From IMG/VR virus record IMGVR_UViG_3300036791_001355, positions 11,506-75,505 of that record: DNA of 64,000 nt; one strand, 5' to 3'. The notes beneath the pieces are model-generated. The model saw nothing but the letters and a program-made list of their open reading frames with translations, did not search any database and was not told the origin of the DNA. The number at the start of each line of letters is the position of its first letter. Position 1 is the stretch's first letter. Shown here piece after piece: positions 6,984 through 59,484 of this stretch. Source of the DNA: a virus. Position numbers and translations under genes: made by a program.

Positions 6984-7303
6984 GGTGTCCCCAGCACGTA
7001 GGTCAGGAAGTCCCGCAGCAGCTTGATGTCTTCGCGATCCAGCTGCACCCCCATGGTGCAGTGATAGGCCTCTTCCGGGCCGCTGATTTCCATATGGCTG
7101 GCAATGAGCGACAGGGTGCAGCCGCCTTCTTCGATGTCGCAGCTGAGCGACATCTCCCGGTCGTCCACATCAAACAGCGTCGCGCTGTCCCAGTTGCCCT
7201 TGGCATCGGCTGCAGGAGCGCGCTTGCGCACGTCCGCATTGCCTGACAACGGACACAAAGTGACGTGGCTGGTCAGATAAGCCAGGAACTCCTTCCCTGC
7301 CAT
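6980..7303 (-). CDS. hypothetical protein (MAGKEFLAYL...)
   Basis: ATG directly after the tandem array; true start uncertain. Confidence 0.5.
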   Translation of the reverse strand: MAGKEFLAYLTSHVTLCPLSGNADVRKRAPAADAKGNWDSATLFDVDDREMSLSCDIEEGGCTLSLIASHMEISGPEEAYHCTMGVQLDREDIKLLRDFLTYVLGTP

Positions 7304-7304
7304 C

Positions 7305-7424
7305 AAGTCGCTCGCAGCCTCGCTCCTGAAGTCGCTCGCAGCCTCGCTCCTGAAGTCGCTCGCAGCCTCGCTCCTGAAGTCGCTCGCAGCCTCGCTCCTG
7401 AAGTCGCTCGCAGCCTCGCTCCTG
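7305..7424 (+). repeat. tandem array, 5 x 24 bp (AAGTCGCTCGCAGCCTCGCTCCTG)
   Basis: five identical units read directly, no spacers; fills the gap between the TerL stop and the next ATG. Confidence 0.95.
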
Positions 7425-7427
7425 AGA

Positions 7428-8765
7428 TCAGAAGCCTTTGTTGTCGCCCAGCGCCATGGCCACGCCATAGGTGAAGCAGTCGAGCAGGTCATCGGCGCCT
7501 GAGTCCACGCCCACCCGATAGCCCACCACCTGGGCCAGCAGATGGTTCCGCGTCGTCGCCTTGTAGGTGATCACCCGGTCATAGGCGGGCTGGCTGATTT
7601 TCACCTTGCCCTGGTGCACGTAGCCGCTGACGTTGATGGCCCGCCCGTCCTTGCCCACCTTGGTCAGGTCGCTCTCGATAGGGTGCGCCCGCCAGCCGCG
7701 CCGCCGCGCCTGCTGCAGCAGGATAGTGCCGCTGTTCTTGTCCTCGATCCACGCCCCCAGGGCGCCCATGCGCGCCCGGCACTGCTTGGCCAGTTCCTCC
7801 ATGCGCTGATAGATGCCCGGCAGCCACTGCTCCAGCAGGCTGCCCTCGATCTGCACAATGTCCCAGTCGAGGATGAGCAGCGGAATGCCGAAATGACGTG
7901 ACACGCCCCAGTAGATGACGGCGGTGCCGTCGTGCTCGCTGTGGTCCTTCACGGCGGTGTCGATGGTGACGAAGATGCCATCGCAGATGGCGGGGTAGGC
8001 GGGCGCCTTGTTGTCGACCAAGAGCGAGGTCTGGGCAAAGAAGGCCGCGCCCGACCAGTCGACGAACTTGGCCTCGTACTCCTGCTCGAACACCAGCGGG
8101 TGAGTGCGCGCGCGTAAGGCCTCGATCTCGTCCTGCGGCAAATAGGGGTTATTGGCCGAGGGCGCCCAGTACTCGACAAAGCCCCACTCCTCGGGCTCAT
8201 TGCACAGGCGCCAGAAGAAGTTCTCGCTATCCAGCCCGTTGGTGTTGGAGGCGGCCAGCGCGGTGCCTTTGTAATCCAGCAGGGTCGGCTCGATGCTCTT
8301 GCGCCAGACATCGGTCATGAACGGCTTGCAGAAGGCCGCCTCGTCGACGATCACCTTGTGGTAGCGGCGGCTTCTGCCGGCGCGCTCGTTATCCAAGCTC
8401 CAGAAGTCAATCCTGCCCCCGGTCGTGGTGCGAATCACCCCGTCCATGCGGTTGGAGCGCAAGATGACCGGGCCGAGGCGCTCGACCACATCGGTGTAGG
8501 CCTCGGAGAGGAATTTATACTCCGGGGCAAACCAGCCGACGTACTCGCCGCGTATGGCGGCATCGCAGGCGATGGTCTCGCACAGCAGCGTCTTGCCCCA
8601 GCGCCGGCCGCAGCGGATCGCCTTGTGCCGCCCGGGCATGCGATAGGCCTTGAGTTGGTCGGCATGGAGCGTGGGCAGTTCCACCTCGACCTCGCGGGCA
8701 CTGTCGGGGCCGCGCCTGGGCGGCAGGTGTACGCGCTGCTCACTCTGCGGGTGGGTCTGCTCCAT
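7428..8765 (-). CDS. terL: terminase large subunit
   Basis: Walker A CGRRWGKT, Walker B VIVDEAA, FEQEYEAKF, nuclease acidic motifs IDTA, IEDK, DDLLD. Confidence 0.93.
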   Translation of the reverse strand: MEQTHPQSEQRVHLPPRRGPDSAREVEVELPTLHADQLKAYRMPGRHKAIRCGRRWGKTLLCETIACDAAIRGEYVGWFAPEYKFLSEAYTDVVERLGPVILRSNRMDGVIRTTTGGRIDFWSLDNERAGRSRRYHKVIVDEAAFCKPFMTDVWRKSIEPTLLDYKGTALAASNTNGLDSENFFWRLCNEPEEWGFVEYWAPSANNPYLPQDEIEALRARTHPLVFEQEYEAKFVDWSGAAFFAQTSLLVDNKAPAYPAICDGIFVTIDTAVKDHSEHDGTAVIYWGVSRHFGIPLLILDWDIVQIEGSLLEQWLPGIYQRMEELAKQCRARMGALGAWIEDKNSGTILLQQARRRGWRAHPIESDLTKVGKDGRAINVSGYVHQGKVKISQPAYDRVITYKATTRNHLLAQVVGYRVGVDSGADDLLDCFTYGVAMALGDNKGF

Positions 8766-9382: not shown

Positions 9383-9571
9383 TTAGCGCGGCCAATGGGT
9401 GAGGAGCCAGATGATGGCAGCGCCGAGGGCGAGGGTGGCGGCGGAGAGGCCGAGCATGGCGCCGGTCATGGTGCCGTTTCCCTGGTCGAAATAGGTCATG
9501 ACGAAGAGCAGCAGGATGATGAGCAGGATGATGGCCAGGGAGCCCCATCCTGCGGCATCCAGGCCGCTCAG
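9383..9571 (-). CDS. small two-TM membrane protein (absent from ORF track; start uncertain)
   Basis: hand translation ...WGSLAIILLIILLLFVMTYFDQGNGTMTGAMLGLSAATLALGAAIIWLLTHWPR*; a CTG overlaps the MTase stop. Confidence 0.45.
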   Translation of the reverse strand: MSGLDAAGWGSLAIILLIILLLFVMTYFDQGNGTMTGAMLGLSAATLALGAAIIWLLTHWPR

Positions 9572-11124
9572 GGGTGTGGGCCTGTGGCGACATAGGCGAA
9601 CAGCGGGAGGTCGTCCTCGACGCGCTGCTTGGCCATGGCGCAGTAGGTGGGGTTGAGGTCGATGCCGATGGCGTGGCGCTGGAGTCTATCGGCGGCGAGG
9701 AGGGTGGTACCGGCGCCTGAGAAGCAATCTAAAACTACACAGGGAACCGGAGCAGGAGTTGTCCACTCCATGCGTGATCCACAGTGTGGGCATTGCCGCG
9801 CATCGGAAACGTCCTCTGACAATGAGGGCAGGTCACAATGTAGACGGGCCTCTTTGCCCCGTCGTGCTGTCTCTTTTCCATCAGTTCCAGATTGCTGAGG
9901 CGATTGTCGAGCCTGTTGCCATTCTTGTGGTGGACCACCTCGGCCGAGGTCAGAAGCCTGCCCAGCTTCTTCTCCATAACCAGCCGATGCTCCATCACGT
10001 AGCCATCGCCCGTTGCATTCGGATGGCCCTTCCGAAGAAGCATCCGGTAACCCTTTGAGGTTACTGTCCACCCCTTCGTTGTGGAGCGATTGGCCGCTGT
10101 CCACCTTTGAGCACAAAGCCTCGAACAGCATTTCTGCCTGCTGGCCACTGGCTGAAACAGGATCGCGCATTGGCTGCATTTGATCGGCTGAAGAATGCGT
10201 CGTCCTGGCATCCTTATGGTCTAGCACGGCCTCACATTTGACACACCGGTATTCATGGCATGGGCAGGCGGGTGTCCAGCCGGTGGTGAGGCGTTGTATG
10301 GGCTCGTTGTAGGCGTTGCCTGCGGTGCCGCGTGAGTGCCGTGCCTCTTGCTTTGGTCCCATCCAGTGATCGTGGCGGCGGTAGGTGATTTCGCTCTGGC
10401 GTATCCATGGGGCACCGCACTGGGCACAGCAGCCGTGCTCGGAGGTTCCGGCCTTGATGCATCGCTCGGCCAGTTCGGGCGGCATGGTGGCGAAGTGAGC
10501 GGCGCTATAGGAGGTGGTGGCGATGGTCCACACGTTGCGGGCGTTGGCGCCCAGAGGATTGAGGGTGACCATGGCGTCCTTGCCGCCCAGGGCGATGCGG
10601 GCGCCGCGCTCGCCGGTCATGGTGTGGCTGAAGCCGTTCACCGGGGAGCGGGCGCGCTCGATGCTATTGGCTTGGTGCGGCTCGCGGATGGCGTCGGCGT
10701 CGTAGAAATATCTGGGCTGTTTGGTGAGCAGGAAGATGTGCTCGTGGGCTGAGGTCGGGCGGTCGGTGATGGATTCCGGCATGGGATTCGGTTTGCACCA
10801 GATGATGTCCGAGCGCAGGTACCACCCGTCCGCTTGGAGCGCGAGGGCGACGCGGGCGGGCATTAGCTGCAGCTGCTTGTTGGTGTGGCCGTCGCCCAGG
10901 TTCAGCCACAAGGTGCCATCGGGGCGGAGAATGCGGCGCACCTCGCGGAAGACCGCGACCAGGGTGGTGATATAGGCCTCTGGCGTAGCTTCCAAGCCGA
11001 TCTGGGCGGCCATGCCATAGTTCCTGTGCCCGTAGTAAGGGGGGCTGGTGACACAGCTGTGGACGCTGCTTGCGGGCAGGGTGGGCAGGATGGTGCGGCA
11101 GTCGCCTTGCAGCAGGCGATTCAC
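9568..11124 (-). CDS. DNA methyltransferase, N4-cytosine/N6-adenine (beta-type order), with large in-frame insertion
   Basis: TSPPY catalytic motif, [44 protein letters not shown] motif; GTG start at 11124. Confidence 0.9.
9735..10211 (-). CDS. HNH homing endonuclease nested in an alternative frame of the methyltransferase
   Basis: CxxC...[42 protein letters not shown] (HNH_3-type), C-terminal CPHC. Confidence 0.85.
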
Positions 11125-11177
11125 AGGAGCGAGATTTCGAGCGACCCTCGCTGCGAGAGCGAGGCTTCGAGCAACCC
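11124..11177 (-). repeat. dimer of the 24-nt element joined by CAGCG
   Basis: minus strand GGGTTGCTCGAAGCCTCGCTCTCG-CAGCG-AGGGTCGCTCGAAATCTCGCTCCTG; fills the gap before the MTase. Confidence 0.85.
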
Positions 11178-11180
11178 CAC

Positions 11181-11468
11181 CTACGCGACCTGACGGGTGA
11201 CGCGCCCCGGTGGGTTGTCGATCAGGCTCAGCCACTGAGAGACGGCGGGCGTGCCGTGCAGGCGGTCAAGGCCGCGCAGCCAGGAGGCCAGGGCAGCGTC
11301 GATGGGTTCACGGCCGCGCAGCTGCTTGCGGGTGAAGCTGTCGTCGCGCTGCGCCATTTGCCACAATAACGTCTGGGACCAGCCGAGACGGGTGAGGATG
11401 GCGCGGGCTTCGTCGGGGGTCATGATCATGGGGGTCATGGCGTGATCCCATAGCATCGGGAGAGGCAT
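11181..11468 (-). CDS. small HTH-like protein
   Basis: MTPDEARAILTRLGWSQTLL...GREPI pattern; start uncertain. Confidence 0.5.
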   Translation of the reverse strand: MPLPMLWDHAMTPMIMTPDEARAILTRLGWSQTLLWQMAQRDDSFTRKQLRGREPIDAALASWLRGLDRLHGTPAVSQWLSLIDNPPGRVTRQVA

Positions 11469-11499: not shown

Positions 11500-12636
11500 T
11501 CAGGCTGCCAGTCCGGGTGCGAAGCTTTGAGCACCCCTCAGCGGGTCGCCCTTGTGGGTGGCGATGGCCTGCCACTCGTGCGGGGACAACTCGATGATCT
11601 GGCCACCCATCTTCTCGAACTCCGACGCCCGGTCGTAGGCGGGGAGGTCTTCGGCGGTGCGGGTGATGGCGTTGAACAAGCCATAGCGGGTCAGGCTGGC
11701 GCCCTCGATGAGGTGGCGCAGGACGCTGGAGCGCTCGCCGTCGTTCATGCCGAACCGCTTGGCCGTGAACTCGACCACCTTGACCGGGTCCGCCTCGATC
11801 TTCTCGGCCACGGTGCCGGTGATCTGGTCGATGCGGGCGGCGAAGCGAGCCTCGTCGAAAGCCCCCTTCACGACGTCGCGTACCTGCGACCAGATGGCCG
11901 CGTCGGTCAGCCTCTTGGTCTCGTCGGACAGCAACTCCATGATGCTATCGGTGGACACCAGTTCGTGGCGGGCACCGACGTGACGGCGCTTCATGCCCTC
12001 GTTGGCAAACACGGCCAAGTTCGTGCAGGCCCGCGTCCACACCCCGGTTTCGACCGAGAGGCTGCCGGCACCGACTTCCGAGTTGGAGATGACGATGGCG
12101 GGCACGCAGGTGTCGAAGATGGTGTGGCTGCCGTCACCCATGCGGCCGCCCTTGGGGATATCGCGGTTGATGCGGTGGTCGCACGCCTTGAGGTAGAGCT
12201 TGCGCTCGGTAATCTCGCAACTGATGACCTCCAGCTGGCAATCAGCCAGCACGGGCAGGATGGCCTCGGCGAGGTCCAAGTTTTCCAACGGCCGGTACTT
12301 GTCGGAGAGGAAAGCGCGGGTGACGCCGTCCATGGTGCGGACGAGGCGCTTGTCGTCAGTCTTGAGCCACGTATTGACGTTGTGGGCCAGCAGGTCCGGG
12401 TTGGTGGTGCGGCAGCGGTCGTAGTACTTGGTCGGGATGCCGGTGTAGACACCGATCTGGTCGTGGGCGATCTCATTGATGCCGAAGATGTTGGCGGAGC
12501 CGCCTACCATGAGGCGAGGCTCCTGACCCCACACGCCCATCTCGATGGCGGTGGCGGGGGCGACGAGGTCACGCTTGGCGTTGGCCTGCCGCTCGATTTC
12601 GGCGGCGAGTTCGGAAATAGAGCGTCCGACTTTCAT
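11500..12636 (-). CDS. DUF932-family protein
   Basis: RAFLSDKYRPLEN, ISNSEVGAGSL, CTNL, RRHVG, LFNAITRTA; start at ATG 12636 after the leader cassette. Confidence 0.8.
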   Translation of the reverse strand: MKVGRSISELAAEIERQANAKRDLVAPATAIEMGVWGQEPRLMVGGSANIFGINEIAHDQIGVYTGIPTKYYDRCRTTNPDLLAHNVNTWLKTDDKRLVRTMDGVTRAFLSDKYRPLENLDLAEAILPVLADCQLEVISCEITERKLYLKACDHRINRDIPKGGRMGDGSHTIFDTCVPAIVISNSEVGAGSLSVETGVWTRACTNLAVFANEGMKRRHVGARHELVSTDSIMELLSDETKRLTDAAIWSQVRDVVKGAFDEARFAARIDQITGTVAEKIEADPVKVVEFTAKRFGMNDGERSSVLRHLIEGASLTRYGLFNAITRTAEDLPAYDRASEFEKMGGQIIELSPHEWQAIATHKGDPLRGAQSFAPGLAA

Positions 12637-12742
12637 AGGGATACCCCTTTCTGGGTAAGCGCTGGGGCGGGATTGCCCTCTGGCCGGTCCCTGTGTAGCC
12701 GGTATGGTGTGGCGATGCAAGTGGAATATTTGCGCGTTTAGG
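12637..12742 (-). promoter_or_regulatory. early promoter/leader cassette P1
   Basis: GCAAATATT box, TTGCAT-17bp-TACACA, hairpin GGGC-AATCCC-GCCC, AGGG-GTAT-CCCT before ATG. Confidence 0.7.
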
Positions 12743-12833
12743 CAAGTTTTTTCTTGCCTCCTCGGGCGGGCTCCTTTAGATATGGCGTTGCCGCCAGGGA
12801 TGGTCCCGGCGGGCTTCAGACAGGGGTTTCCCG
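12740..12833 (+). promoter_or_regulatory. early promoter/leader cassette P2
   Basis: TTGCCT(12754)-17bp-TAGATA(12777); CCGCC-A-GGGA-tgg-TCCC-GGCGG; CAGACAGGGGTTTCCCG-ATG. Confidence 0.75.
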
Positions 12834-13028
12834 ATGGCCTCCTCAGCCGCTCACATCCAAGCCTGCCAAGCCACTCTCGCCCGCATCCTCGCGCTGCGCC
12901 CCGCGCTGCACCGCATCAGCGACCGCAAGATGAACCAGCTGGTCGCCATGATTGACCGCGTGGTGCGCGACGCCACCGCCGCCGGCTGGTCGCAGGACCG
13001 CATCGTCAACTACCTCGACAACCTGTGA
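12834..13028 (+). CDS. hypothetical early protein (64 aa)
   Basis: first ATG after P2. Confidence 0.65.
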   Translation: MASSAAHIQACQATLARILALRPALHRISDRKMNQLVAMIDRVVRDATAAGWSQDRIVNYLDNL

Positions 13029-13044
13029 GGGGGAGGGCTAAGCC

Positions 13045-13308
13045 ATGAATGCTTTCGATCTTCGCGGCGGCTACACGCAGGAGCAGCTTGACGCTGCCTT
13101 CACCCTGGTGGCGCCGAGCGACAACTGGAAGCTGCCCGTCAACACCTTCCTGCCGGGCGATCTCAGCGTGCCTGAACTGGCCCTGCTGACCTTCGCGGTG
13201 CCGTTCTACACCGGCAGCGTGCCGACCCTGACCCGCTGCCGCGATGCCTGGGGCGTACTGGGCTGGCGGGTCACGGCGGACGGCTACTACGCCACCGTGG
13301 GGGCCTGA
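13045..13308 (+). CDS. hypothetical early protein (87 aa)
   Basis: GGAGG RBS; operon packing. Confidence 0.7.
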   Translation: MNAFDLRGGYTQEQLDAAFTLVAPSDNWKLPVNTFLPGDLSVPELALLTFAVPFYTGSVPTLTRCRDAWGVLGWRVTADGYYATVGA

Positions 13309-13310
13309 CC

Positions 13311-13559
13311 ATGGGCCTCCCCCCGATGACCCGCGAGGAAGCCTACGGCGTCGAGATCACCACCGTGAACGGCGAGGTCGCGGTGCTGCCGCACACCATG
13401 CACGTGAAGCAGCAGCACGCGCTGGTGGCGCTGACCAATCTGCGCTGGGGCTACCGGCACGCGCCGCCCACGCACTGGTGGCATCAGGTCAAGCACGCCC
13501 GCGTGGTGCGGGTGCAACTGTCGTGGCACATCAAGGAGAGCAGCAATGTCGCTGAGTGA
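13311..13559 (+). CDS. hypothetical early protein (82 aa)
   Basis: operon packing. Confidence 0.6.
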   Translation: MGLPPMTREEAYGVEITTVNGEVAVLPHTMHVKQQHALVALTNLRWGYRHAPPTHWWHQVKHARVVRVQLSWHIKESSNVAE

Positions 13560-13773
13560 GCATTTTCGCCGGGACAATACCGAGGGCTATGACGCGGCCG
13601 ATCTGGCGGCGCTGAACGCGGCCTGGACGCGCATCACCGCACATGGCGCACCGGGTGAGGACGAGGACGACATCGGCGTACGGTCGATGCTCAACCACTG
13701 GGGCGAGCAGCTGCTGGCCGCGTATGATGCCGGGCGGCGCGGTGATGACCTCGTGGCATGGTTCTATCAATGA
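13546..13773 (+). CDS. hypothetical early protein (75 aa)
   Basis: AAGGAG RBS; FRRDNTEGYDAADLAALNAA. Confidence 0.65.
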   Translation: MSLSEHFRRDNTEGYDAADLAALNAAWTRITAHGAPGEDEDDIGVRSMLNHWGEQLLAAYDAGRRGDDLVAWFYQ

Positions 13774-13940
13774 CCCGCCGCATCATCCAGATCGCCGTCT
13801 CGCCGGGCCGCCATGGCGAACCGGACACCTTGTACGCGCTGACCGATATGAGCGAGGTGTGGGAACTCAGCGGCGGCCATTGGTCGCGCCTGGAGCCGCT
13901 GCCGCCGGACGAGCGATGGCCGCATGGCAACCCTGCCTAA
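13770..13940 (+). CDS. hypothetical early protein
   Basis: ATGA overlap; MTRRIIQIAV...LYALTD...W. Confidence 0.6.
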   Translation: MTRRIIQIAVSPGRHGEPDTLYALTDMSEVWELSGGHWSRLEPLPPDERWPHGNPA

Positions 13941-13946
13941 ATGCGT

Positions 13947-14050
13947 GCCTAAATACGCAAATATTCCGCTTGCATTGTCAGCGCCGCCGGGCTAGAAAGC
14001 CTCTGCCGCCAGGGACTGGCCCGGCGGCTTATCAGATCGGGTTTAACCCA
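13947..14050 (+). promoter_or_regulatory. early promoter/leader cassette P3
   Basis: GCAAATATT, TTGCAT(13970)-17bp-TAGAAA(13993); GCCGCC-A-GGG-actgg-CCC-GGCGGC; CAGATCGGGTTTAACCCA-ATG. Confidence 0.75.
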
Positions 14051-14266
14051 ATGGCTCGCGTAACCTCCCGCACATGGATGCGAGTGATGGCCGGACTCTA
14101 TCGCTACGGCGACTGGACCATCGGCCGGAACGAGGACAGCAACCCTGGCTACTACTGGTCGATCCACCATCCCGACCGGGGCGAGTTCTACGCCCACACG
14201 CTGAAGGAGGCGAAGGCTGCTGCCCTGCGTGCCGACCGTGAGTGGCAGCATTCGGTGGAGGGCTGA
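14051..14266 (+). CDS. hypothetical early protein
   Basis: first ATG after P3; TLKEAKAAA. Confidence 0.65.
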   Translation: MARVTSRTWMRVMAGLYRYGDWTIGRNEDSNPGYYWSIHHPDRGEFYAHTLKEAKAAALRADREWQHSVEG

Positions 14267-14269
14267 GCC

Positions 14270-14503
14270 ATGACAAACTATCTCACCGCCAGCACCGCCG
14301 GCTGGTATTGGCTGACCTACCGCACCGCCGATGGCGCCCCCGGCTATACTTGGCCCCACCCTGACGGCCGCTTTTGCTTCTACTGGGAGCCGTCCTGGCA
14401 AGCCTGGAGCGAGACGCGCAAGCGCGACTCGTACGTCTTGCTGCACCCCAACAATGGCTGGCGTCTCGAAGGGCCGGCCCAGGAGGAGGACGCGGCGCCA
14501 TGA
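14270..14503 (+). CDS. hypothetical Trp-rich early protein (77 aa)
   Basis: GGAGG RBS; operon packing. Confidence 0.6.
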   Translation: MTNYLTASTAGWYWLTYRTADGAPGYTWPHPDGRFCFYWEPSWQAWSETRKRDSYVLLHPNNGWRLEGPAQEEDAAP

Positions 14504-14748
14504 CGACCCCCACCTATCGCGTCTGGTGCGTGGTCAGCGGCGGCGTCACCGGCACCCGGCAGGCGTGGCTGAAGGACGGCGACGGGCTGGTCCGCGAATG
14601 GACCGACCGGGCCGAGGCCGAAAGGCAAGCCAACGTGCTGACGCGGCGAATGAACTATCATCCGCTCGCCAAGGCGACGTTTCAGTATCTGGTCCGGAAA
14701 TCGCCCGACTACAGCATGCTGTCCGACAAACCAAGCTGGGAGAACTGA
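14500..14748 (+). CDS. hypothetical early protein
   Basis: ATGA overlap; YRVWCVVSGGVTGTRQAWLK. Confidence 0.65.
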   Translation: MTTPTYRVWCVVSGGVTGTRQAWLKDGDGLVREWTDRAEAERQANVLTRRMNYHPLAKATFQYLVRKSPDYSMLSDKPSWEN

Positions 14749-14752
14749 GCCG

Positions 14753-14851
14753 ATGGACCCGCTCGGCCTCGCCCTCGGCCTGCTGCTGCTCGTTCTCGTG
14801 GCGCTGATTCTGACCGCTAACCCCAATCAACGAGGACACTCAATACCATGA
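14753..14851 (+). CDS. tiny single-TM peptide (32 aa)
   Basis: hand translation MDPLGLALGLLLLVLVALILTANPNQRGHSIP; GGGAG RBS. Confidence 0.45.
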   Translation: MDPLGLALGLLLLVLVALILTANPNQRGHSIP

Positions 14852-15255
14852 TGATCAACGTACGAGCCCTTGGCGTCACTGTCGTATTGCTTGGCGGCGC
14901 ATGGGCTGCGAGCGTCGCCTCGCACAGTCCCCCAGCCAGCAATCTGCCGGTATTCGGAGCCAGCGATATTGCTGCCATCATCGAAGCAAGCCAGAGACAG
15001 GAACCGCTTTTCAACCGCGACTACAAAAACCGGGCCTTCTCGGCCTCTGGTCTCGTGAAGGAAATCACTTCGGATCTGGGCGGCGGCTACATGGTCTCCG
15101 TAGACGTTCGTGGCAGCACCGTCCTTTGTTCGCTCGACGGCACGAGGTACGATCTCGCGAGCCTCGCCCTCAATAGCCGGGTCAGCATCACCGGCACGAT
15201 TCGCTTCACGGTCTTGGGCCATTTGTCCATCAGCGAATGCAACATGCGTGCGTAA
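14848..15255 (+). CDS. exported OB-fold-like protein
   Basis: signal-like N-terminus; YKNRAFSASGLVKEITSDLGGGYMVSV...RVSITGTI; lower GC. Confidence 0.55.
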   Translation: MMINVRALGVTVVLLGGAWAASVASHSPPASNLPVFGASDIAAIIEASQRQEPLFNRDYKNRAFSASGLVKEITSDLGGGYMVSVDVRGSTVLCSLDGTRYDLASLALNSRVSITGTIRFTVLGHLSISECNMRA

Positions 15256-15258
15256 AAA

Positions 15259-15356
15259 GGCAAATATTTCACTTGCCCTGGCATCGCCACTAGGCTAGAA
15301 ACTACCTGCCGCCAGGGAATCCTCCCGGTGGCGAACATCAGACTGGGGACACCCCG
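15259..15356 (+). promoter_or_regulatory. early promoter/leader cassette P4
   Basis: GGCAAATATT, TTGCCC(15273)-17bp-TAGAAA(15296); GCCGCC-A-GGGA-atcc-TCCC-GGTGGC; CAGACTGGGGACACCCCG-ATG. Confidence 0.75.
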
Positions 15357-15560
15357 ATGAGCTTTTCCCTCCACGCCGAAGCCAAGGCCCTCGCCGCCCG
15401 CGTCCGTGCCCTGGCCAACCAGCGCGACGCCGACTTCATCCAGAGCGCCGATCCCCGCGCCTTGCAGGGCGGCGCCATCAGCTGGGACGCCCACGAAATC
15501 CACGAAATTGCCGATCAGCTGCTCGACGTCGCCCTCCAGCTTGAGAACGTGGAGGGCTGA
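15357..15560 (+). CDS. hypothetical early protein (67 aa)
   Basis: first ATG after P4. Confidence 0.65.
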   Translation: MSFSLHAEAKALAARVRALANQRDADFIQSADPRALQGGAISWDAHEIHEIADQLLDVALQLENVEG

Positions 15561-15563
15561 GCC

Positions 15564-15650
15564 GTGACCACCGCCTTCGTCCTCATCGCCCTGATTTTCG
15601 TCATTCTCGCTGTCTTCAGCGTCCTTTCGTCCCTCGGCAGGGAGGGCTGA
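15564..15650 (+). CDS. tiny single-TM peptide (28 aa)
   Basis: GTG after GGAGG; MTTAFVLIALIFVILAVFSVLSSLGREG. Confidence 0.5.
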   Translation: MTTAFVLIALIFVILAVFSVLSSLGREG

Positions 15651-15653
15651 GCG

Positions 15654-15785
15654 GTGCACTTCCTTTTCACCGTGGCCTGGATCATCGGCGGCTTCGCCCT
15701 GTCCGTGCTGCTCGCCTTCGGCCTGTCGGCCTCCGCCATCGTCGCGCACGCTGTCATCGCGCGGCACCGGAGGAGCACGCCATGA
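15654..15785 (+). CDS. tiny hydrophobic peptide (43 aa)
   Basis: GTG after GGAGG; hydrophobic stretch then RHRR. Confidence 0.5.
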   Translation: MHFLFTVAWIIGGFALSVLLAFGLSASAIVAHAVIARHRRSTP

Positions 15786-15946
15786 CCTTCATGGAGTTCT
15801 GGCGTGCCCTCAACCTCGCACTCACCGCCCGTGGCGAGCCCGAGGCGCTGTGGAGCGAAGCCCGCGAGTGGTACGCGTGGCGCCCGGTCAAGCTCGTCGA
15901 TACCCGCCTCGTCAACCGCGTCATCAACGCGCGGCGGCCGCTGTGA
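15782..15946 (+). CDS. hypothetical protein (54 aa)
   Basis: ATGA overlap, GGAGGAG RBS; MTFMEFWRALN... Confidence 0.55.
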   Translation: MTFMEFWRALNLALTARGEPEALWSEAREWYAWRPVKLVDTRLVNRVINARRPL

Positions 15947-16464
15947 CCGGCACCCCCCGCCTGCGCTGCTGGGACGGCAAGACCCAGATGGCCTGGGTCT
16001 ACGACGACGGCGGCCGGGCTGCCGCCGGCTTCAAGGGCCGCTCCGCCGACTGCGTCGCGCGTGCCATCGCCATTGCCACCGGCACGCCCTATCGCGCGGT
16101 CTACGACGCCCTCAACGCGCTGGCCCAGCGTGAGCGACCGAGGCAAGGCAAGGCCCGTTCAGCGGCCCGCACGGGCGTCCGCAAGACCATCTACCGGCCC
16201 TACCTCGAAGCGCTGGGCTGGCGCTGGGTGCCGACCATGCGGCTGGGCCGGGGCGCCACCGTGCATCTGTGCGAGGAGGAACTACCGACCGGCCGCCTGA
16301 TCGTCAGCGTCAGCCGTCACCTGACGGCGGTGATCGACCACGTCGTGCACGACAGCCACGACCCCCAGCGGGCTGGCGTCGAGACCGTCAACGGCAGCGA
16401 CCGCATCATCCGCCGCTGCGTCTACGGCTACTTCACCAAATCGGCGACGCGAGTCGCATCTTAG
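15943..16464 (+). CDS. conserved phage protein with DCVARAIAIA motif (possible Cys/His peptidase-like fold)
   Basis: YDDGGRAAAGFKG..DCVARAIAIATG...SRHLTAVID..VHD; start may be ATG 15988. Confidence 0.65.
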   Translation: MTGTPRLRCWDGKTQMAWVYDDGGRAAAGFKGRSADCVARAIAIATGTPYRAVYDALNALAQRERPRQGKARSAARTGVRKTIYRPYLEALGWRWVPTMRLGRGATVHLCEEELPTGRLIVSVSRHLTAVIDHVVHDSHDPQRAGVETVNGSDRIIRRCVYGYFTKSATRVAS

Positions 16465-16475
16465 GGAGGACCGCC

Positions 16476-16868
16476 ATGTGGATCTGTCTGTCTGACGCCT
16501 TCCTGTCCGTGGTGCAGCATCCCCAGTCGCCCCGGCGGCTGATGGTGCGGGCACGGGCACGGGGCGACATCACCCGGGTGTTTCCGCAGGCGCGGGTGCA
16601 CCATACGCCGCAGCGCGACTATCCGTGGCGGGCCTACCTGTCGCGGCAGGCGGTGGCCGACGCCGTGGCCCGCGAGGTGCGCGACATCGACTACACCAAC
16701 TTCAAGGACTCGGTGCCCGAGGACGCCCGCCACGACGCCTATACGGCCGTGTGGGTGACCATGCTGGACTGGTCGCACGGACGCTTCCGCCGCCGTCCAG
16801 CGCCCGCCTGGGAGCCGCTGGAGCAACCCTGGGCCGATGAACCGCCGTGTCTGTGGGGCAAGCCATGA
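16476..16868 (+). CDS. conserved hypothetical protein
   Basis: MWICLSDAFLSVV...LMVRAR...DYPWRA...IDYTNFKDSV; GGGAGG RBS. Confidence 0.7.
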   Translation: MWICLSDAFLSVVQHPQSPRRLMVRARARGDITRVFPQARVHHTPQRDYPWRAYLSRQAVADAVAREVRDIDYTNFKDSVPEDARHDAYTAVWVTMLDWSHGRFRRRPAPAWEPLEQPWADEPPCLWGKP

Positions 16869-17071
16869 GCCCGCACAAGATCGAGCGCACCATCCGCGCC
16901 CTGGGCTGGAGCGTCGAGCGCACCCACGGCGGCCACTACGTGTGCCGCCATCCCGACGCCGCCTATCCCGTCTATGCCGCCGCCACGCCGTCCTGCCACC
17001 TGTTTTTCGCCAACCTCAAGGCCGAGTTCCGGCGCGCGCTGCGGGCCAAACGATCCAAGGAGACCGCGTGA
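16865..17071 (+). CDS. HicA-like small protein
   Basis: ALGWSVERTHGGHY...V..AATPS...N..AEFRR matches the HicA-type pattern. Confidence 0.6.
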   Translation: MSPHKIERTIRALGWSVERTHGGHYVCRHPDAAYPVYAAATPSCHLFFANLKAEFRRALRAKRSKETA

Positions 17072-17235
17072 TGGTCAGCCGTAAGTTACTCCATCTCGAA
17101 AAGCACCTGCGCGACAAGGCCGCCGAGGGCATGCCGCTGACGCCATACGAGATGCGACATGTGGCCGATATTCTCGCCGCCATGCGCGAACTGGTGCTGC
17201 AAATGGAACTGCTGCGGGTGGACCCTGAGGCCTGA
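17071..17235 (+). CDS. hypothetical protein
   Basis: TGATG coupling, AAGGAG RBS. Confidence 0.55.
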   Translation: MVSRKLLHLEKHLRDKAAEGMPLTPYEMRHVADILAAMRELVLQMELLRVDPEA

Positions 17236-17239
17236 GCAT

Positions 17240-17347
17240 TTATTTGCCTAGCCGTGATATTTGCCTATTGCATGTCGTAAGGAGATAGGGTAGATAATGC
17301 CTCACCGGCAGGGGTGGTCCCGCCGGCCGCACACAGGGGTTTCCCGA
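17240..17347 (+). promoter_or_regulatory. early promoter/leader cassette P5
   Basis: two TATTTGCCTA boxes, TTGCAT(17268)-17bp-TAGATA(17291); CCGGC-A-GGGG-tgg-TCCC-GCCGG; CACACAGGGGTTTCCCG-ATG. Confidence 0.75.
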
Positions 17348-17408
17348 TGCTTCAGATGCCCGCTCTTCTCGCCCTCCAGGCGACCCTCGTGTGCCAGGAG
17401 GCGGCGTG

Positions 17409-17696
17409 ATGAACATCCAAACCAACAACTGGATCAGCGGCCTGTGGATGGCCTGGGATGACGACACCGATGACGGCGCCCTGGACAGCCAGTGGCGCCG
17501 CATCGCCACCGGCCTTTCCGAGGCCGAGGCGGTCGCCACCCTGCTGCGGCAGCTGTCGGATCAGGACATCGACTGGCTGGCATGGGAGGTCCGCGCTGGC
17601 CACCACGCCGCCTGGGCGGAACTGATCGCGGCCGAGGACGACAGCCGCGCCGCACTCAACCCCCACCAGTGCCTCGACTACGGCAAGGGCCTCTGA
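17409..17696 (+). CDS. hypothetical acidic protein
   Basis: AGGAGG RBS; preceded by a 20-codon mini-ORF at 17348-17410. Confidence 0.6.
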   Translation: MNIQTNNWISGLWMAWDDDTDDGALDSQWRRIATGLSEAEAVATLLRQLSDQDIDWLAWEVRAGHHAAWAELIAAEDDSRAALNPHQCLDYGKGL

Positions 17697-26064: not shown

Positions 26065-27288
26065 ATGACCACGAAGAAAGAAGTGGCGACGGCGGCCCCT
26101 GTGGTTCCTGCCTTGCCAGAAGGTGCGACCAAGTCGGCTTCGCTGATCGACATCATGGCACCAGTGCTGGCGGCGCTTTTGCAGCGCGAGAATCCGAACA
26201 TGGATGCGGTGGACCGGGCCATGGCCATGGCCGAGCGGCTGGAGTTCGCGCGCCGGGAACAGGAGTTCAAACAGGCCTTCGCCGTTATGTGGCCCAAGCT
26301 GCCGCAGATCGCCAAGAAGGGTGACGCCAGCCTGGGCGGCAAGGGCGGCTACAAATACGTGCGCGAAGAAGACGTCATGGAGGAGTGCAAGCCGATCATG
26401 GAAGACCATGGTTTCGGCCTGTCCGCCCAGCCGGTCGAGCAGGATCTGAAGACGGGCACACTGACCATGGAAGTCGAACTGATTTTCCGGAATGGCTTTT
26501 CCAAGCGCGCGCGGATGAGCGGCTACGCCGATGCCGGACCCGGACGCAACGCGCTGCAGGCAATGGGCTCGGCCCAGACCTACCTGACCAAATACCTGAC
26601 TAAGGGCCTGCTGGCATTGGTCCAGAGAGGCGCCGACGACGACGGCAACCGGGTAGGCCTGCGGGAAAGCGGCGGCGACTATATGGGCAACGCCAAGACG
26701 CGCCCTGGCGGCAGCGGCAGCAGTGACCGGCTGAATACCCCGCCCCAGGATCTGCCCGGCGACCAGCCAGCCCCACCGCCGCCCAAGGCCAAGGCGGCCG
26801 CAGCGCAGTGGATCGACCCCGATGGCATCGTGCATGACAACGCCAAGGCATGGTCGCTGGCCTTCAACGAGCACTGGGCGATGGCCAGCCCGGAGGAGCG
26901 GCTGGAACTGCACGAGGAGTATGGCGCCACCCTGCTGGCGGCCCGCAGCGCTGACCGCGAAGCGGCAGTCATCCTGGCGGGGGTGGAGAACAGACGCGAC
27001 CAGAGCGAGACCGAATCGGGACCGACAGATTCGCCCGACTCGAAGCCCGACTCGGCCAAGCTCAGCGACGATGAACAATGGGCCGGAAGAGTGCCCGACG
27101 TGTTGAAACGCCTGCCCAGGACCAACGAAGGCCGCGTGAATTTCGCCAAGCTGCTGCAAGAAGCCACGGCCAGGATGCAACGGCTCAAGAAAGCCAGCCC
27201 CACGGTCTACGAACAGACCCGGGCAAAGTTCACGGCGACCAGCGAGAGGATAGATTTCGCCCCCGCCAACAAAAGGGCGACACCGTGA
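26065..27288 (+). CDS. erf: Erf-family ssDNA annealing protein
   Basis: LPQIAKKG...YKY..EEDV...KPIM..HGF, QAMGSAQTYLTKY...DDDG; follows Gp157. Confidence 0.85.
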   Translation: MTTKKEVATAAPVVPALPEGATKSASLIDIMAPVLAALLQRENPNMDAVDRAMAMAERLEFARREQEFKQAFAVMWPKLPQIAKKGDASLGGKGGYKYVREEDVMEECKPIMEDHGFGLSAQPVEQDLKTGTLTMEVELIFRNGFSKRARMSGYADAGPGRNALQAMGSAQTYLTKYLTKGLLALVQRGADDDGNRVGLRESGGDYMGNAKTRPGGSGSSDRLNTPPQDLPGDQPAPPPPKAKAAAAQWIDPDGIVHDNAKAWSLAFNEHWAMASPEERLELHEEYGATLLAARSADREAAVILAGVENRRDQSETESGPTDSPDSKPDSAKLSDDEQWAGRVPDVLKRLPRTNEGRVNFAKLLQEATARMQRLKKASPTVYEQTRAKFTATSERIDFAPANKRATP

Positions 27289-27596
27289 GCGCCCCGATGA
27301 CGGACGAACAGCTGGGCTCGCTGCTGCGCGGCGAGAAACAGCTCCAGGCGCGGCACCTGAAGCTCTTGGCCATCCTGCCGCCGGGCGGGCTCTCGGTACA
27401 GGATGCCGCCCATGCCATGCGGATCAGCACGCCATGGGCTAGCCGCACCGCGACACTGCTGGTCAGGCACGGCTATATCAAGCGCATGGAAGGCGAGGAT
27501 GACCGCCGGGTGGCGTACCTGACGCCGACGCCCTCTGGGCTGGCGCTGGCGGCCCGTGTCACCGTGGTATCACGCTCACGGCGGAGTGCCGCGTGA
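27285..27596 (+). CDS. MarR-type winged-helix regulator
   Basis: SVQDAAHAMRISTPWASRTATLLVRHGYIKR....DRRVAYLTPTPSG. Confidence 0.8.
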   Translation: MSAPMTDEQLGSLLRGEKQLQARHLKLLAILPPGGLSVQDAAHAMRISTPWASRTATLLVRHGYIKRMEGEDDRRVAYLTPTPSGLALAARVTVVSRSRRSAA

Positions 27597-27620
27597 ACGA
27601 CGCGAAGGAGCGTCTTGGCG

Positions 27621-43814: not shown

Positions 43815-44971
43815 TCCGCTGCCTGCGGCACCTCGGGCGCCGCCTGGGCGAACCACTTGGCGGTCTCCATCAGCTGCTCGGGGTTGATGTCAGCGATGCA
43901 CGCCGCCGCCTCCGCGTGCTCGGCTTTGCGACACGTTTCGATACTATCATGAAGGCGGTGGCATGGCCAGCACGGTACCCGCTCCTGATCGGCGTGCAGC
44001 GTCGCGGTGTAGCGCCAGTGCTTGGTGATGTTTTCCTCGCTGGCGTGGCTCAGCAGCACGATCTTGCCAATGTCCCCGCGCATCGCCACCGACCACATCG
44101 GCCCGGTGTCGGGGCCGATCACCAGGGTGCACAGCCGCAGCTGCGACAGCGTGCGCCGGATCGGCCATAGCGGCTCGGGCTTGTCGGCGAGCTTGATGTG
44201 CACCGCATCGGGTTCCACCGACCAGCCTTGCGTCTCGGTGCCGGGCGAAATGGCCTGATGCAGGCCGGCGAGCGAGCCGTTCTGCGCCTCCACTTGCTCC
44301 ATGATCGCTTTCGAGATGGCGAAGTCACGCGGCCCGGAGCCGAACATGATGACCGGCCAGCCGATTTCCTTGATCAGCCGCGCCACCACCATCGACGAGT
44401 AGGGATAGATTTTGTCGATGCGGCTGCCCGAGACGCACCAGCCGATGACCTCGGTGCTGCCGAGCTTGCGCTGCGTCGCCAACGCTTTGTCCCGCTCCTG
44501 CTCGGTGGGGAAAAAATCGGGCGCGAACTGATAGGGCACCTCGGCGATGTCGTGCACGTACTCGAGATAAGACCGCCCGCACAGCTTGCGACGCATGGAA
44601 TCCGGCCAGTTGAAAGCTGTCTGTGCCTGCACCAGGGCCAGCGCTACCTCGCAGGAATGGGAGAGATGCACGAACTTCGCCACTTCGCGGGCGCGGGCGG
44701 TGAACCATTGCTGCCATTCGATGCCGCCGTGCTGCGGCAGGTCTTCCGGCTTTTTGAGCACCAGCTTGGCGATGTGCGGGTTGTGCTCGAACACCGCCGA
44801 TGCCGGTTCCTGGGTGATCACCTCGACGAGATAATCGCGCGCCAGCAGGGGCAGAATCGACGAGGCGATGAGGTTATCGCCGATGGAGCCCATGCGGCAG
44901 ACGGTGGCCCACTGGGTCGCTCGAAAGCTCGCTCCCGCAGCGAGGTCGCTCGAAACCTCGCTCCCGGTCAC
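43811..44971 (-). CDS. glycosyltransferase family 9-like protein
   Basis: RMGSIGDNLI, FEHNPHI, LVIGPDTGPMWSVA, CWPCH...C. Confidence 0.8.
   Translation of the reverse strand: MTGSEVSSDLAAGASFRATQWATVCRMGSIGDNLIASSILPLLARDYLVEVITQEPASAVFEHNPHIAKLVLKKPEDLPQHGGIEWQQWFTARAREVAKFVHLSHSCEVALALVQAQTAFNWPDSMRRKLCGRSYLEYVHDIAEVPYQFAPDFFPTEQERDKALATQRKLGSTEVIGWCVSGSRIDKIYPYSSMVVARLIKEIGWPVIMFGSGPRDFAISKAIMEQVEAQNGSLAGLHQAISPGTETQGWSVEPDAVHIKLADKPEPLWPIRRTLSQLRLCTLVIGPDTGPMWSVAMRGDIGKIVLLSHASEENITKHWRYTATLHADQERVPCWPCHRLHDSIETCRKAEHAEAAACIADINPEQLMETAKWFAQAAPEVPQAAE
44914..44966 (+). repeat. dimer of the 24-nt element joined by CAGCG
   Basis: GGGTCGCTCGAAAGCTCGCTCCCG-CAGCG-AGGTCGCTCGAAACCTCGCTCCCG, at the 5' end of the GT9 gene. 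Confidence 0.9.
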
Positions 44972-57721: not shown

Positions 57722-57767
57722 CTCAGCCTCTCAGGTAAGAGGACGACGCTAAGGAGCGTCTTAGGGG

Positions 57768-59462: not shown

Positions 59463-59484
59463 GACTACACACTCCGGTTCGAGG

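Follow-up and report, generated by a model that had tools for sequence, protein, structure and literature searches.

Introduction

The PeSLs (promoter-early stem-loop cassettes) of T4-type phages are repeated modules of ~100 bp lying amid small ORFan genes (PMC2839356; Comeau et al. 2014, PMC4122927). In these modules, the stop codon of the preceding gene is followed by an AT-rich stretch, a sigma-70-like -35/N17/-10 promoter, a G-run/C-run stem-loop, a Shine-Dalgarno sequence and an unrelated gene's start codon, and cassette-mediated gene shuffling has been shown for them (PMC2839356; PMC4122927). Their stem-loops are usually located between the -35 and -10 boxes or overlap the -10, and act as terminators or attenuators of upstream transcription (Arbiol et al. 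2010, PMC2839356). In Cluster K mycobacteriophages, the SAS/ESAS element, of unknown function but with a suspected role in translation initiation (Pope et al. 2011, PMC3203893), is a repeated asymmetric element found at the translation starts of some unrelated genes, with the ribosome site within GGG...CCC (5'-GGGATAGGAGCCC); an imperfect inverted repeat with a variable spacer precedes about half of the SAS sites (PMC3203893). Finally, among bacterial and phage mRNAs with 5'-terminal stabiliser stem-loops, the ompA, papA and aprE leaders carry a stable hairpin upstream of the ribosome site, with few unpaired 5' nucleotides at most (PMC3997798). Blocking of RppH and of 5'-end-dependent RNase E or RNase J by such stem-loops and by other 5' obstacles is an established mode of protection (reviewed in PMC3997798), also covered in PMC9943677 and PMC11194081.

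Here, we analysed a 64-kb window (the whole stretch of DNA studied) from the 75.5-kb record of an uncultured soil phage. Our results support the presence, in its early region, of repeated promoter-leader modules that precede unrelated small genes. As in PeSLs, predicted sigma-70-like promoters with an AT-rich upstream block recur before unrelated small ORFs, and the components come in a similar succession. However, the hairpins lie wholly downstream of the -10, in the transcribed leader, starting 7-9 nt after it, with no U-tract. Membership in the PeSL class was therefore rejected, and the analogy with these cassettes drawn by an earlier sequence-only reading of the locus fails on anatomy (PMC2839356). 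Like SAS/ESAS, the module keeps to one orientation relative to the gene and places the ribosome site within a G-run and a C-run, but the sequences and host phylum are different, with no sequence relationship, the ESAS arms are 17 bp long, and the SAS/ESAS unit contains no promoter. The geometry of the 5'-terminal stabilisers (hairpin within ~0-3 nt of the 5' end) would fit if transcription starts 7-9 nt after the -10. By contrast with the ompA, papA and aprE hairpins, which are gene-specific and not conserved in sequence, the hairpin type described here recurs ahead of many unrelated genes, and many mobile elements have kept its apical 14 nt.

Results

A search of both strands for TTGCMY-N17-TASAHA returned five matches in the window, P1 to P5, and no other (Table 1), in agreement with the sequence-only reading; the chance expectation from shuffles is 0.03 for this pattern, which was built post hoc from the same sites. 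A cassette model derived from sequence alone likewise found exactly five copies across the whole 75.5-kb record. Each cassette of ~120 nt comprises, in order, an AT-rich block, TTGCMY, 17 bp, TAsAhA, a leader hairpin, CAGA, a G-run/C-run and ATG. P1 points leftward and P2-P5 rightward, all with unrelated small genes behind them. The five-copy alignment spans ~140 columns with a mean identity of 61%; CAGA is the sole second conserved linear element, and the alignment also contains an upstream block (TGCCTAAA..GCAAATATTCC) that was absent from the earlier description. In P3, this block is directly 3' of the preceding gene's stop codon, and the one shared by P1 and P2 is possibly an UP element or a factor site. 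Megablast identified no close relative of the phage, the best relatives showing ~65-69% identity in one protein. In two related phages with homologous cassettes, the position of the hairpin is kept while its stems are altered yet paired, G-U pairs included.

A consensus promoter scanner called no promoter at the cassettes, whose -10 boxes are without the usual final T. Caulobacter-type TANAWC boxes resemble these -10 boxes. Given their repetition, their spacing and the analogy with known promoters, the five sites are best explained as putative host-type (sigma-70 family) early promoters. The soil metagenome of origin was the single sequencing run with this DNA, the listing including no RNA run. 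Palindromes are present inside the promoter spacers of related phages (L011, L219, L220, L222).

Table 1. Location of the cassette features in the 64-kb window.
Cassette	Feature	Position	Strand	Basis or remark
P1-P5	TTGCMY-N17-TASAHA sites	12692-12720; starts 12754, 13970, 15273, 17268	-; +	pattern match
P1/P2	AT-rich block shared by the back-to-back promoters (GGAATATTTGC / TTAGGCAA)	12721..12753	.	conserved columns upstream of -35; direct reading
P1	putative promoter TTGCAT, 17 bp, TACACA	12692..12720	-	pattern match
P1	leader hairpin, exact 14-mer GGGCAATCCCGCCC: GGGC/GCCC stem, AAUCCC loop	12665..12678	-	folding, motif match
P1	ribosome site AGGGGTATCCCT, then ATG	12634..12648	-	direct reading
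P2	putative promoter TTGCCT, 17 bp, TAGATA	12754..12782	+	pattern match
P2	leader hairpin GCCGCC-A-GGG-AUGGU-CCC-GGCGG(G)C	12790..12814	+	starts 8 nt after -10
P2	GGGGTTTCCC, G, ATG: G-run Shine-Dalgarno paired with C-run, then start codon	12823..12836	+	
P3	upstream AT-rich block and putative promoter TTGCAT, 17 bp, TAGAAA	13949..13998 (promoter 13970-13998)	+	pattern, alignment
P3	leader hairpin GCCGCC-A-GGG-ACUGG-CCC-GGCGGC	14005..14028	+	starts at 7th nt after -10
P3	GGGTTTAACCC, A, ATG	14039..14053	+	
P4	upstream AT-rich block and putative promoter TTGCCC, 17 bp, TAGAAA	15255..15301 (promoter 15273-15301)	+	pattern, alignment
P4	leader hairpin GCCGCC-A-GGG-AAUCCU-CCC-GGUGGC	15308..15332	+	G-U pair; family AAUCC retained in loop
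P4	GGGGACACCCC, G, ATG	15345..15359	+	
P5	upstream block and putative promoter TTGCAT, 17 bp, TAGATA	17240..17296 (promoter 17268-17296)	+	pattern, alignment
P5	leader hairpin CCGGC-A-GGG-GUGGU-CCC-GCCGG	17305..17326	+	one base pair flipped vs P2-P4
P5	GGGGTTTCCC, G, ATG	17336..17349	+	direct reading

The leader hairpins of P2-P5 share one layout: a basal stem of 5-6 bp, a bulged A, GGG, a loop of 5-6 nt, CCC and the returning basal stem, as the earlier reading had described. All four have retained the asymmetric bulged A. P1 is not hairpin-less, as it has its own, different hairpin (GGGC-AATCCC-GCCC). RNAfold recovered the P2-P5 hairpin in 4/4 short leaders and in 3/4 longer ones, and the folding energies were not better than those of shuffled sequences (z -1.8 to +0.8). 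The basal stems read CCGCC/GGCGG in P2 and P3, CCGCC/GGUGG in P4 and CCGGC/GCCGG in P5. These are the changes that had been called compensatory; the stem sequences are as reported, but covariation within the window amounts to one double change plus G-U pairs and is not significant, 137/500 shuffles scoring equally high. Loops and linkers have diverged among copies while stems remain paired. The hairpin of P1 ends 28 nt before its start codon, those of P2-P5 20, 22, 24 and 20 nt before theirs. The bases 3' of the hairpins (CUUCAG, UUAUCA, GAACAU, CGCACA) form no U-tract, and the terminator scan was blank at these sites; an identity as intrinsic terminators was rejected on these grounds.

The arrangement G-run, N3-5, C-run, N, ATG is present at 5/5 cassettes and at only three further sites in the 64 kb, which bears out the earlier description. 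It is found only at cassette-led genes of the units, the internal genes being tightly coupled with GGAGG-type sites. The ATG of P5 opens an ORF of 20 codons, the stop of which overlaps with the following start at 17409. No significant similarity was seen among the first ORFs downstream of the cassettes, in keeping with the earlier claim that they are unrelated. The leftward gene behind P1 (11500-12636) is DUF932-like (phrog_1362 match 3.7e-43, DUF932 weak). Neither a terminator scan nor reading of the sequence revealed an intrinsic terminator between the four rightward units.

The leader hairpin of the module belongs to a widespread and apparently uncatalogued RNA hairpin, GGGC-AAUCCC-GCCC, which many phages and integrated mobile elements carry just before the ribosome site of genes predicted to be expressed first. 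We defined this family here with searches anchored on the exact 14-mer, and its invariance is thus partly built in. Among 120 IMG/VR sites, the 14-mer precedes Shine-Dalgarno-led start codons at 65, vs 10 in the opposite orientation, at a median distance of ~21 nt (mostly 17-28 nt). The basal stems of the family covary (0.265 vs 0.133 +/- 0.016 in shuffles; 0/500 as high), permutation tests agree, and wobble pairs are G-U on the sense strand. Covariation among homologs, the absence of which had been named as refuting, is thus present at the family level. The 14-mer is invariant across phages of 42-72% GC, including lineages with unrelated terminases, and across integrated elements of several bacterial phyla. 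The downstream genes are diverse small ORFans in phages, and include RadC and DUF2958 genes in integrated bacterial elements, while the proteins common to motif-bearing loci are terminases, DUF932 and DUF7227. A strict sigma-70-like promoter lies just upstream in only 13/65 family leaders, and the hairpin is therefore not always 5'-terminal.

Within the window, the family features are the apical GGGC/GCCC stem with an AAUYCC loop (exact in P1), the sense orientation ~15-30 nt before a Shine-Dalgarno-led start and the variable basal stem. Intermediates such as CCGCC-A-GGGC-AATTCC-GCCC-GGCG connect P2-P5 to the P1 14-mer. P2, P3 and P5 are derived members, linked through L231, L009 and L220, that keep only GGG/CCC of the apical part and have mutually different loops; P4 retains AAUCC. 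The bulged A is confined to a subset of the family (L220, L231, L009), on different basal stems. The notion that loops vary freely did not hold in the wider family: the apex GGGC-AAUCCC-GCCC is usually invariant, including in multi-copy genomes (L269 with three copies, L300 with three, L279 with two), and P2, P3 and P5, having lost it, are exceptional. Rfam 15 covariance models gave no gathering-score match in the window or in 15 related loci, as the sequence-only reading had proposed checking; at E<=5-10, only chance eukaryotic matches appeared. Literature searches returned no match to the hairpin.

Discussion

We propose that the hairpin is an RNA leader element starting at or near +1, which shields and organises the ribosome-binding region, a reading to which we assign a probability of roughly 45%. 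Each early promoter would be fused to a standard leader of ~50 nt, with a predicted transcription start 7-9 nt after the -10, at the hairpin foot, and each early mRNA would consequently open with a stable GC-rich stem-loop and 0-2 unpaired 5' nt. The hairpin is the local form of the mobile-element leader hairpin, with its conserved apex on a covarying basal stem; P1 keeps the canonical apex, which P2-P5 have given up in favour of a bulged A and a basal stem of greater length. From the orientation bias and the basal-stem covariation of the family, the hairpin behaves as RNA, a strand-specific, transcribed element. The observation made by the sequence-only reading is confirmed and its leader-RNA interpretation partly supported, by the family rather than by the window, where covariation is too thin; the antitermination and bulged-A protein binding that it also suggested are conjecture. 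Speaking against our reading, a generic protective hairpin leaves the invariance of the apical 14-mer across phages and integrated elements unexplained.

This invariance, maintained while the flanks covary, would be accommodated if the hairpin is the recognition site of a conserved trans-acting partner, a translational operator adjoining the Shine-Dalgarno sequence. Such a partner, either a common host component (ribosome, RNA polymerase, RNase) or a regulator borne by the mobile elements, would enhance the translation of first-wave genes, set its timing or switch it off. The usually exact copies within one genome, the tight distance to the start codon, the occurrence in phages with unrelated terminases and in integrated elements of several phyla, and the recurrence of the bulged A on different basal stems are all consistent with this possibility. 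P1, with its canonical loop, and P2-P5, with a diverged loop and the bulged A, would then form two classes, the latter recognised differently or not at all. The MS2 and PP7 coat-protein operators also carry one bulged A in the 5' arm, separated from a small loop by a few base pairs, but contain the replicase start codon and conserved loop bases. In the soil phage, by contrast, the P2, P3 and P5 loops differ and the hairpin is 20 nt upstream of the start. However, no candidate partner emerges from the proteins common to the motif loci, the downstream genes are unrelated, part of the invariance stems from the anchored searches, and P2, P3 and P5 lost the loop and kept the stem, which suggests that structure alone suffices in this phage. 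We consider this explanation possible but rather unlikely.

Processive antitermination of the nut or put type, in which the nascent hairpin, with or without a phage N-like protein, modifies RNA polymerase for read-through of terminators, including Rho-dependent ones, appears improbable. Lambda nut boxB and HK022 put are also small leader hairpins, located shortly after early promoters of phages and acting in cis on the expression of early operons, and the soil-phage hairpin, strand-specific and leader-located, immediately follows early promoters. With 14-24 nt, a GC stem and a loop of 5-6 nt, it is similar in size to boxB. Since no intrinsic terminator separates the rightward units, long read-through transcripts are expected, for which protection against Rho would be useful. 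However, there is no conserved boxA-like partner sequence, no linear element beyond CAGA and no two-hairpin put fold; the P2, P3 and P5 loops differ mutually, in contrast to the boxB sites that a single N protein reads; such a mechanism has no use for a fixed distance to the Shine-Dalgarno sequence and start codon; the early ORFs searched yielded no recognisable N, Q, NusG or RfaH-like protein; and there is no Rfam match. A lambda-type nut site was rejected on the absence of further linear elements, the differing loops and the lack of a family match among the early ORFs.

It is very improbable that the inverted repeat works as double-stranded DNA, whether as a +1 to +25 operator through which a dimeric phage repressor shuts off early transcription, or as a cruciform or recombination site, PeSL-like, that shuffles gene cassettes. 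The repeat does overlap the start region of every rightward promoter, the clear spacer palindromes of related phages imply that some early promoters in this group are under operator control, and homologous exchange, demonstrated for PeSLs (PMC2839356), could take place between repeated 120-nt modules. Nevertheless, the retention of an asymmetric bulged A throughout P2-P5, the flip of a base pair across both arms inside a single genome, wobbles that are G-T on the sense strand and not A-C, and the strong gene-orientation bias (65 vs 10) argue against a DNA site, as do basal arms that covary with unrelated sequences, which a single DNA-binding protein could not follow. There is equally little to recommend a functionless passenger, with hairpin and G/C-run inherited by five recent duplicates of one promoter region: copies ~60-80% identical are compatible with common descent, and covariation and folding energies within the window are not significant, but the stems stay paired despite loop and linker divergence, other phages retain homologous hairpins whose stems differ, and the wider family displays significant stem covariation and positional constraint.

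Returning to the leader that we favour, its most likely job would be protection of the transcript's 5' end and ribosome-binding region against decay that depends on the 5' end, through RppH followed by either scanning RNase E or RNase J. The weak G-run/C-run pairing at the Shine-Dalgarno sequence, specific to this phage and its nearest relatives, may tune initiation. This promoter-leader module probably starts five early gene blocks of the soil phage. The hairpin would also give the ribosome site a defined setting, whereby the leading gene of each unit, unable to rely on translational coupling, would be strongly expressed right after infection.

Five promoter-leader cassettes in the window

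The source record is a 75.5-kb linear phage, ~80% complete (CheckV) and with ~64% GC, of which the window comprises bases 11506-75505; a soil metagenome is the sole sequencing run containing this phage DNA. The arrangement of genes around the cassettes is a phage early-region layout. The five repeated promoter cassettes proposed by the sequence-only reading were borne out: the pattern TTGCMY-N17-TASAHA matches at five places in the window and at no other in the genome, and a sequence-only cassette model run over the genome recovered exactly five copies. P1 lies on the minus strand, before the DUF932-like gene, and stands back-to-back with P2. The five copies align over ~140 columns with a mean identity of 61%, and the alignment takes in an AT-rich block 5' of the -35 box (TGCCTAAA..GCAAATATTCC) absent from the earlier description. 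The stop codon of the preceding gene directly abuts the starts of P3, P4, and P5, with no terminator found in between. Unlike the cassette-led first genes, among whose ORFs, as had been claimed, no relation was found, the inner genes of each unit have GGAGG-type sites, and their stop and start codons overlap. A consensus promoter scanner called none at the cassettes because their -10 boxes end in A; these boxes resemble the TANAWC-type boxes of alphaproteobacteria, and we infer that they belong to promoters.

The bulged-A hairpin described in P2-P5 is present and was recovered by RNAfold. P1 has a leader hairpin too, of a different kind, GGGC-AATCCC-GCCC, hereafter the 14-mer. Folding energies were no better than those of shuffles in this GC-rich DNA. 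Compensatory change in the stem, also proposed from the sequence, holds within the window to the extent of one flipped pair in P5 and G-U pairs in P4, but 137 of 500 shuffles scored as high. The element at the ribosome site (G-run, N3-5, C-run, N, ATG) was found at all five cassettes and at only three other places in the 64 kb. Its weak G-run/C-run pairing is specific to this phage and, in part, to two related contigs (L009 and L010), and we read it as a putative local tuning of initiation. A loop-to-Shine-Dalgarno pseudoknot, possible for P1 (AUCCC with GGGGU), was dropped as not general.

Further elements were observed in the window. P5 is followed by a 20-codon ORF (MLQMPALLALQATLVCQEAA) whose stop codon runs into the next gene's start (GTGATG), which suggests a possible leader peptide or coupling ORF. 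A small hairpin repeat of the GACGC-GAAG-GCGTC type (family D18) may represent terminators or another dispersed element, and a dispersed 24-nt repeat (GGTCRCTCGAAGNCTCGCTCCCGA) occurs as monomers and as 5x tandem arrays.

Positions of the cassettes, neighboring genes and other elements (window coordinates unless a contig is named)
Feature	Position	Orientation	Remark
24-nt repeat	7305-7430 and 60497-60622; single copies at 6286, 8778, 44915-44981
Large terminase	7428-8765	leftward	before cassettes
DNA methylase	9568-11235	leftward	before cassettes
DUF932-like protein, phrog_1362	11500-12636	leftward	behind P1
P1 hairpin	12665-12678	minus
~25 small ORFs	right of 12834		tightly packed; no or unknown families
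P3	13970	plus	after P2
P4	15273	plus	after P2
P5	17268	plus	after P2
20-codon ORF	17347-17409		after P5
Erf-like annealing protein	26065-27288		farther right than the small-ORF block
D18 hairpin repeat	27591-27620, 57737-57766, 59480-59509, 59557-59586		four copies
Promoters with spacer palindrome	L011:5214-5265, 9415-9466, 9949-10000
Intergenic module	L012:6100-6560, 7220-7280, 10260-10330, 11650-11720		70.6-kb relative
Two 14-mer leaders	L369:6713-6746 and 7512-7550		Pseudoxanthomonas winnipegensis contig; before RadC-JAB and DUF2958 genes

Relatives share the plan of the cassettes

Homologues of the DUF932-like protein number in the thousands, with many on 60-80 kb contigs, and the closest (70-75% identity) are in Logan assemblies. 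A tblastn search with this protein returned distant relatives only (≤40% identity), giving no clue to the host, and megablast found no match to the cassette region among cultured phages. Among 80 IMG/VR loci gathered by a profile of the protein, cassette homologues were detected (nhmmer, model R1) in only two phages, L010 (three copies) and L009 (two weaker copies). These cassettes comprise a -35/-10 pair, a hairpin 8-14 nt past the -10 box, (TT)CAGAC, a purine-rich ribosome site and CCCCGATG. Their hairpins, GGCC-G-GAGC-AATTCC-GCTC-G-GGCC and CGCCGGGGC-AATTCC-GCTCTGGCG in L010 and GCCG-A-GGGC-ATTCC-GCCC-CGGC in L009, the latter again with a bulged A, are unlike those of the window and still paired. 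Other relatives have different repeated designs, some with a palindrome in the promoter spacer and some with leader hairpins of their own; promoter plus leader hairpin is therefore a common plan in the group, with lineage-specific sequence.

L011, L219, L220, and L222 have repeated CTTGCG-17-TATAT promoters with a perfect palindrome inside the spacer (e.g., TAGGACAccgTGTCCTA, GGGCAATTGCCC), a probable operator for a phage repressor. L012 has a module, unlike the window cassette, ordered as CTGAYCCGCGA, a variable long hairpin, a CCTGG..CCAGG hairpin, ACAGAGGACACC and ATG.

Viral scans for the window-type hairpin with its promoter gave zero matches and then a single chance match (L007). A scan of metagenomes for CCGCCAGGG..CCCGSYGG..CCCNATG yielded at least 120 matches; the 120 listed were chance matches in coding sequence, none with promoter context, and their free positions showed no clear excess of complementarity (GC 55, GT 15, CC 26, CT 24). 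AT[CT]C loops on stems of ≥4 bp were found in 14 of 71 DUF932 leaders versus 6-10 in controls, which is not clearly above; only long-stem cases 20-37 nt from the ATG stand out.

A 14-mer hairpin family crosses phage lineages

Since P1 and L010 share GGGCAAT(C/T)CCGC(C/T)C, IMG/VR was scanned for this motif. Together with a downstream CCCNATG it was found in 23 contigs, most matches having a sigma-70-like promoter on one side and a ribosome site on the other. The exact 14-mer alone gave at least 120 distinct sites; 65 of the 120 listed are followed, in the motif orientation, by a Shine-Dalgarno sequence, a start codon and an ORF of ≥40 codons, versus 10 in the opposite orientation. Among these listed sites, the distance from motif end to start codon clusters at 17-28 nt (median ~21), and several contigs have two or three copies, always in one orientation. 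The phages range in GC content from 0.42 to 0.72 among the matches listed. The terminase of the largest motif-bearing clade has no detectable relation to that of the window, and the motif thus crosses phage lineages. The family searches were anchored on an exact word and cover the matches listed, so that prevalence and loop conservation are not free of bias.

At many sites the two flanks of the 14-mer are perfect complements of each other, in sequences unrelated between sites (GGAGTG/CACTCC, CTGGAG/CTCCAG, GCCGG/CCGGC, CGCC/GGCG, GGGGTCC/GGGCCCC). Covariation among homologues, expected from the sequence-only reading, did emerge here: when 63 leader sites were aligned without gaps, the score for the basal helix was 0.265 versus 0.133 +/- 0.016 for shuffles, none of 500 scoring as high, with 74.0% versus 64.6% of cells paired and the true register above all slid registers. 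Separate permutation tests agree, and the in-stem mismatches, few in number, are sense-strand G-U and not A-C. Because kinship among some rows inflates the numbers, we take these statistics as good support, short of proof. Bridging forms connect the family to P2-P5, namely CCGCC-A-GGGC-AATTCC-GCCC-GGCG (L231), GGTC-A-GGGC-AATCCC-GCCC-GACC (L220) and the L009 hairpin; the P4 loop, AAUCCU, like these forms, points to the 14-mer family.

The genes behind the motif form 65 clusters for 75 sites and mostly encode 40-150 aa. A strict promoter lies just upstream in only 13 of 65 family leaders, and linkers before GGAG are mostly U-rich. A candidate binding protein shared by motif-bearing loci was sought, and only terminases, DUF932, DUF7227, and unknowns were found. 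Distant blastn of an AT-richer motif cluster (L269) gave no match among cultured phages. In one IMG/VR phage group (L236, L244, L269, L282, L290, L300, L337; GC 0.47-0.64), GGGCG precedes the 14-mer, so that another hairpin of 7-8 bp, GGGCGGG-GCAAU-CCCGCCC, could form instead, with a U-run and then GGAG after it. Since its 5' arm overlaps the promoter discriminator, this hairpin could be a terminator for read-through transcripts and not for promoter-started ones.

The 14-mer in bacterial genomes

In species-representative genomes, the 14-mer followed by GGAG and ATG gave at least 120 matches, with roughly 50 expected by chance. Many listed matches are in Burkholderiales (Variovorax, Polaromonas, Hydrogenophaga, Ideonella), the rest being scattered over other phyla. 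Near-identical leaders recur in many Burkholderiales genomes, and in many of the bacterial matches (L352-L469) ~60 nt upstream of the 14-mer are also conserved. On the P. winnipegensis contig, the leader-led genes neighbor two ParB/RepB genes, a large serine recombinase and an AbiEii toxin, and the locus looks like an integrated mobile element; RadC-like JAB and DUF2958 genes are types typical of establishment or leading regions. Because some matches must be chance and one locus was examined, the link to bacterial mobile elements is a lead.

Discussion

Repeated promoter-leader modules organise the first minutes of expression in many phages. To our knowledge, few have been analyzed besides the T4-type PeSLs and the unexplained SAS/ESAS repeats. 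The PeSL analogy drawn by the sequence-only reading stands for the AT-rich block, promoter, G/C stem-loop and ribosome site ahead of ORFans. However, PeSLs have a stem-loop inside or over the promoter that is a tested terminator (PMC2839356, PMC4122927), whereas the window hairpin lies in the predicted transcribed leader, without a U-run, a defining feature on which the cassettes fall outside the PeSL class. The closest anatomical parallel, with no sequence relation, is offered by the SAS/ESAS repeats of Cluster K mycobacteriophages, whose function is unknown. These have GGGATAGGAGCCC at start sites, and at half of the sites an inverted repeat of variable spacer length comes first (PMC3203893). 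Rfam gave no existing family for the window hairpin, nor any match for the window or 15 related loci, and in the papers searched the 14-mer or its complement turned up in nothing but unrelated primers.

The P2-P5 hairpins start at the 7th to 9th base after the -10 box, the usual start point of bacterial RNA polymerase. Because the hairpin foot falls there, the stem-loop would open each message and leave hardly any free 5' end. Stem-loops at the 5' terminus block RppH as well as RNase E or RNase J acting from the 5' end, and structured obstacles shield downstream sites from scanning RNase E (PMC3997798; PMC9943677, PMC11194081). The spacing to the ribosome site, fixed in the window and the family, suggests that the hairpin would also frame the initiation region of genes recruiting ribosomes de novo. 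Of the functions considered, we tentatively favor a leader with protective and organising roles as the likeliest, with a probability of about 0.45.

A protective leader does not account for the sequence invariance of the apical 14 nt across the wider family, itself found by the exact 14-mer. This invariance keeps in play a specific partner reading the hairpin, although we consider such a partner rather unlikely. Still more doubtful is a broader proposal, taken as a whole, that the 14-mer on its covarying stem would be a general "entry-phase" leader signal of mobile DNA, read by a conserved cellular component and giving first-wave genes privileged expression or protection. Such a signal would be common to unrelated phages and to elements that integrate or conjugate, standing ahead of establishment genes of the RadC, DUF2958, and DUF932 types, and the window's phage would have two early-unit classes, the canonical P1 and the bulged-A derivative P2-P5. 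Antitermination is rated lower, as a boxA is absent, the loops are not alike and it gives no role to the link with the start codon. A DNA operator or recombination site, likewise given a lower rating, is at odds with the asymmetric bulge, the pair flipped in both arms, the sense-strand wobbles and the strong orientation bias. Finally, passenger sequence, also placed lower, would not be expected to show the covariation and positional constraint of the family.

These data tie the cassettes of one phage to a small RNA hairpin for which Rfam has no entry. With an unchanged apex and compensating stems, this hairpin recurs before unrelated early ORFans in many uncultured phages and apparently before establishment-type genes of integrated bacterial elements. 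Should it stabilise first-wave messages or boost them, the hairpin would make a compact, portable expression part, and it would be a practical marker by which regions of early and anti-defence genes could be found in metagenomic sequences of phages and ICEs. A specific binder, if there is one, would be a control point common to the establishment of mobile elements.
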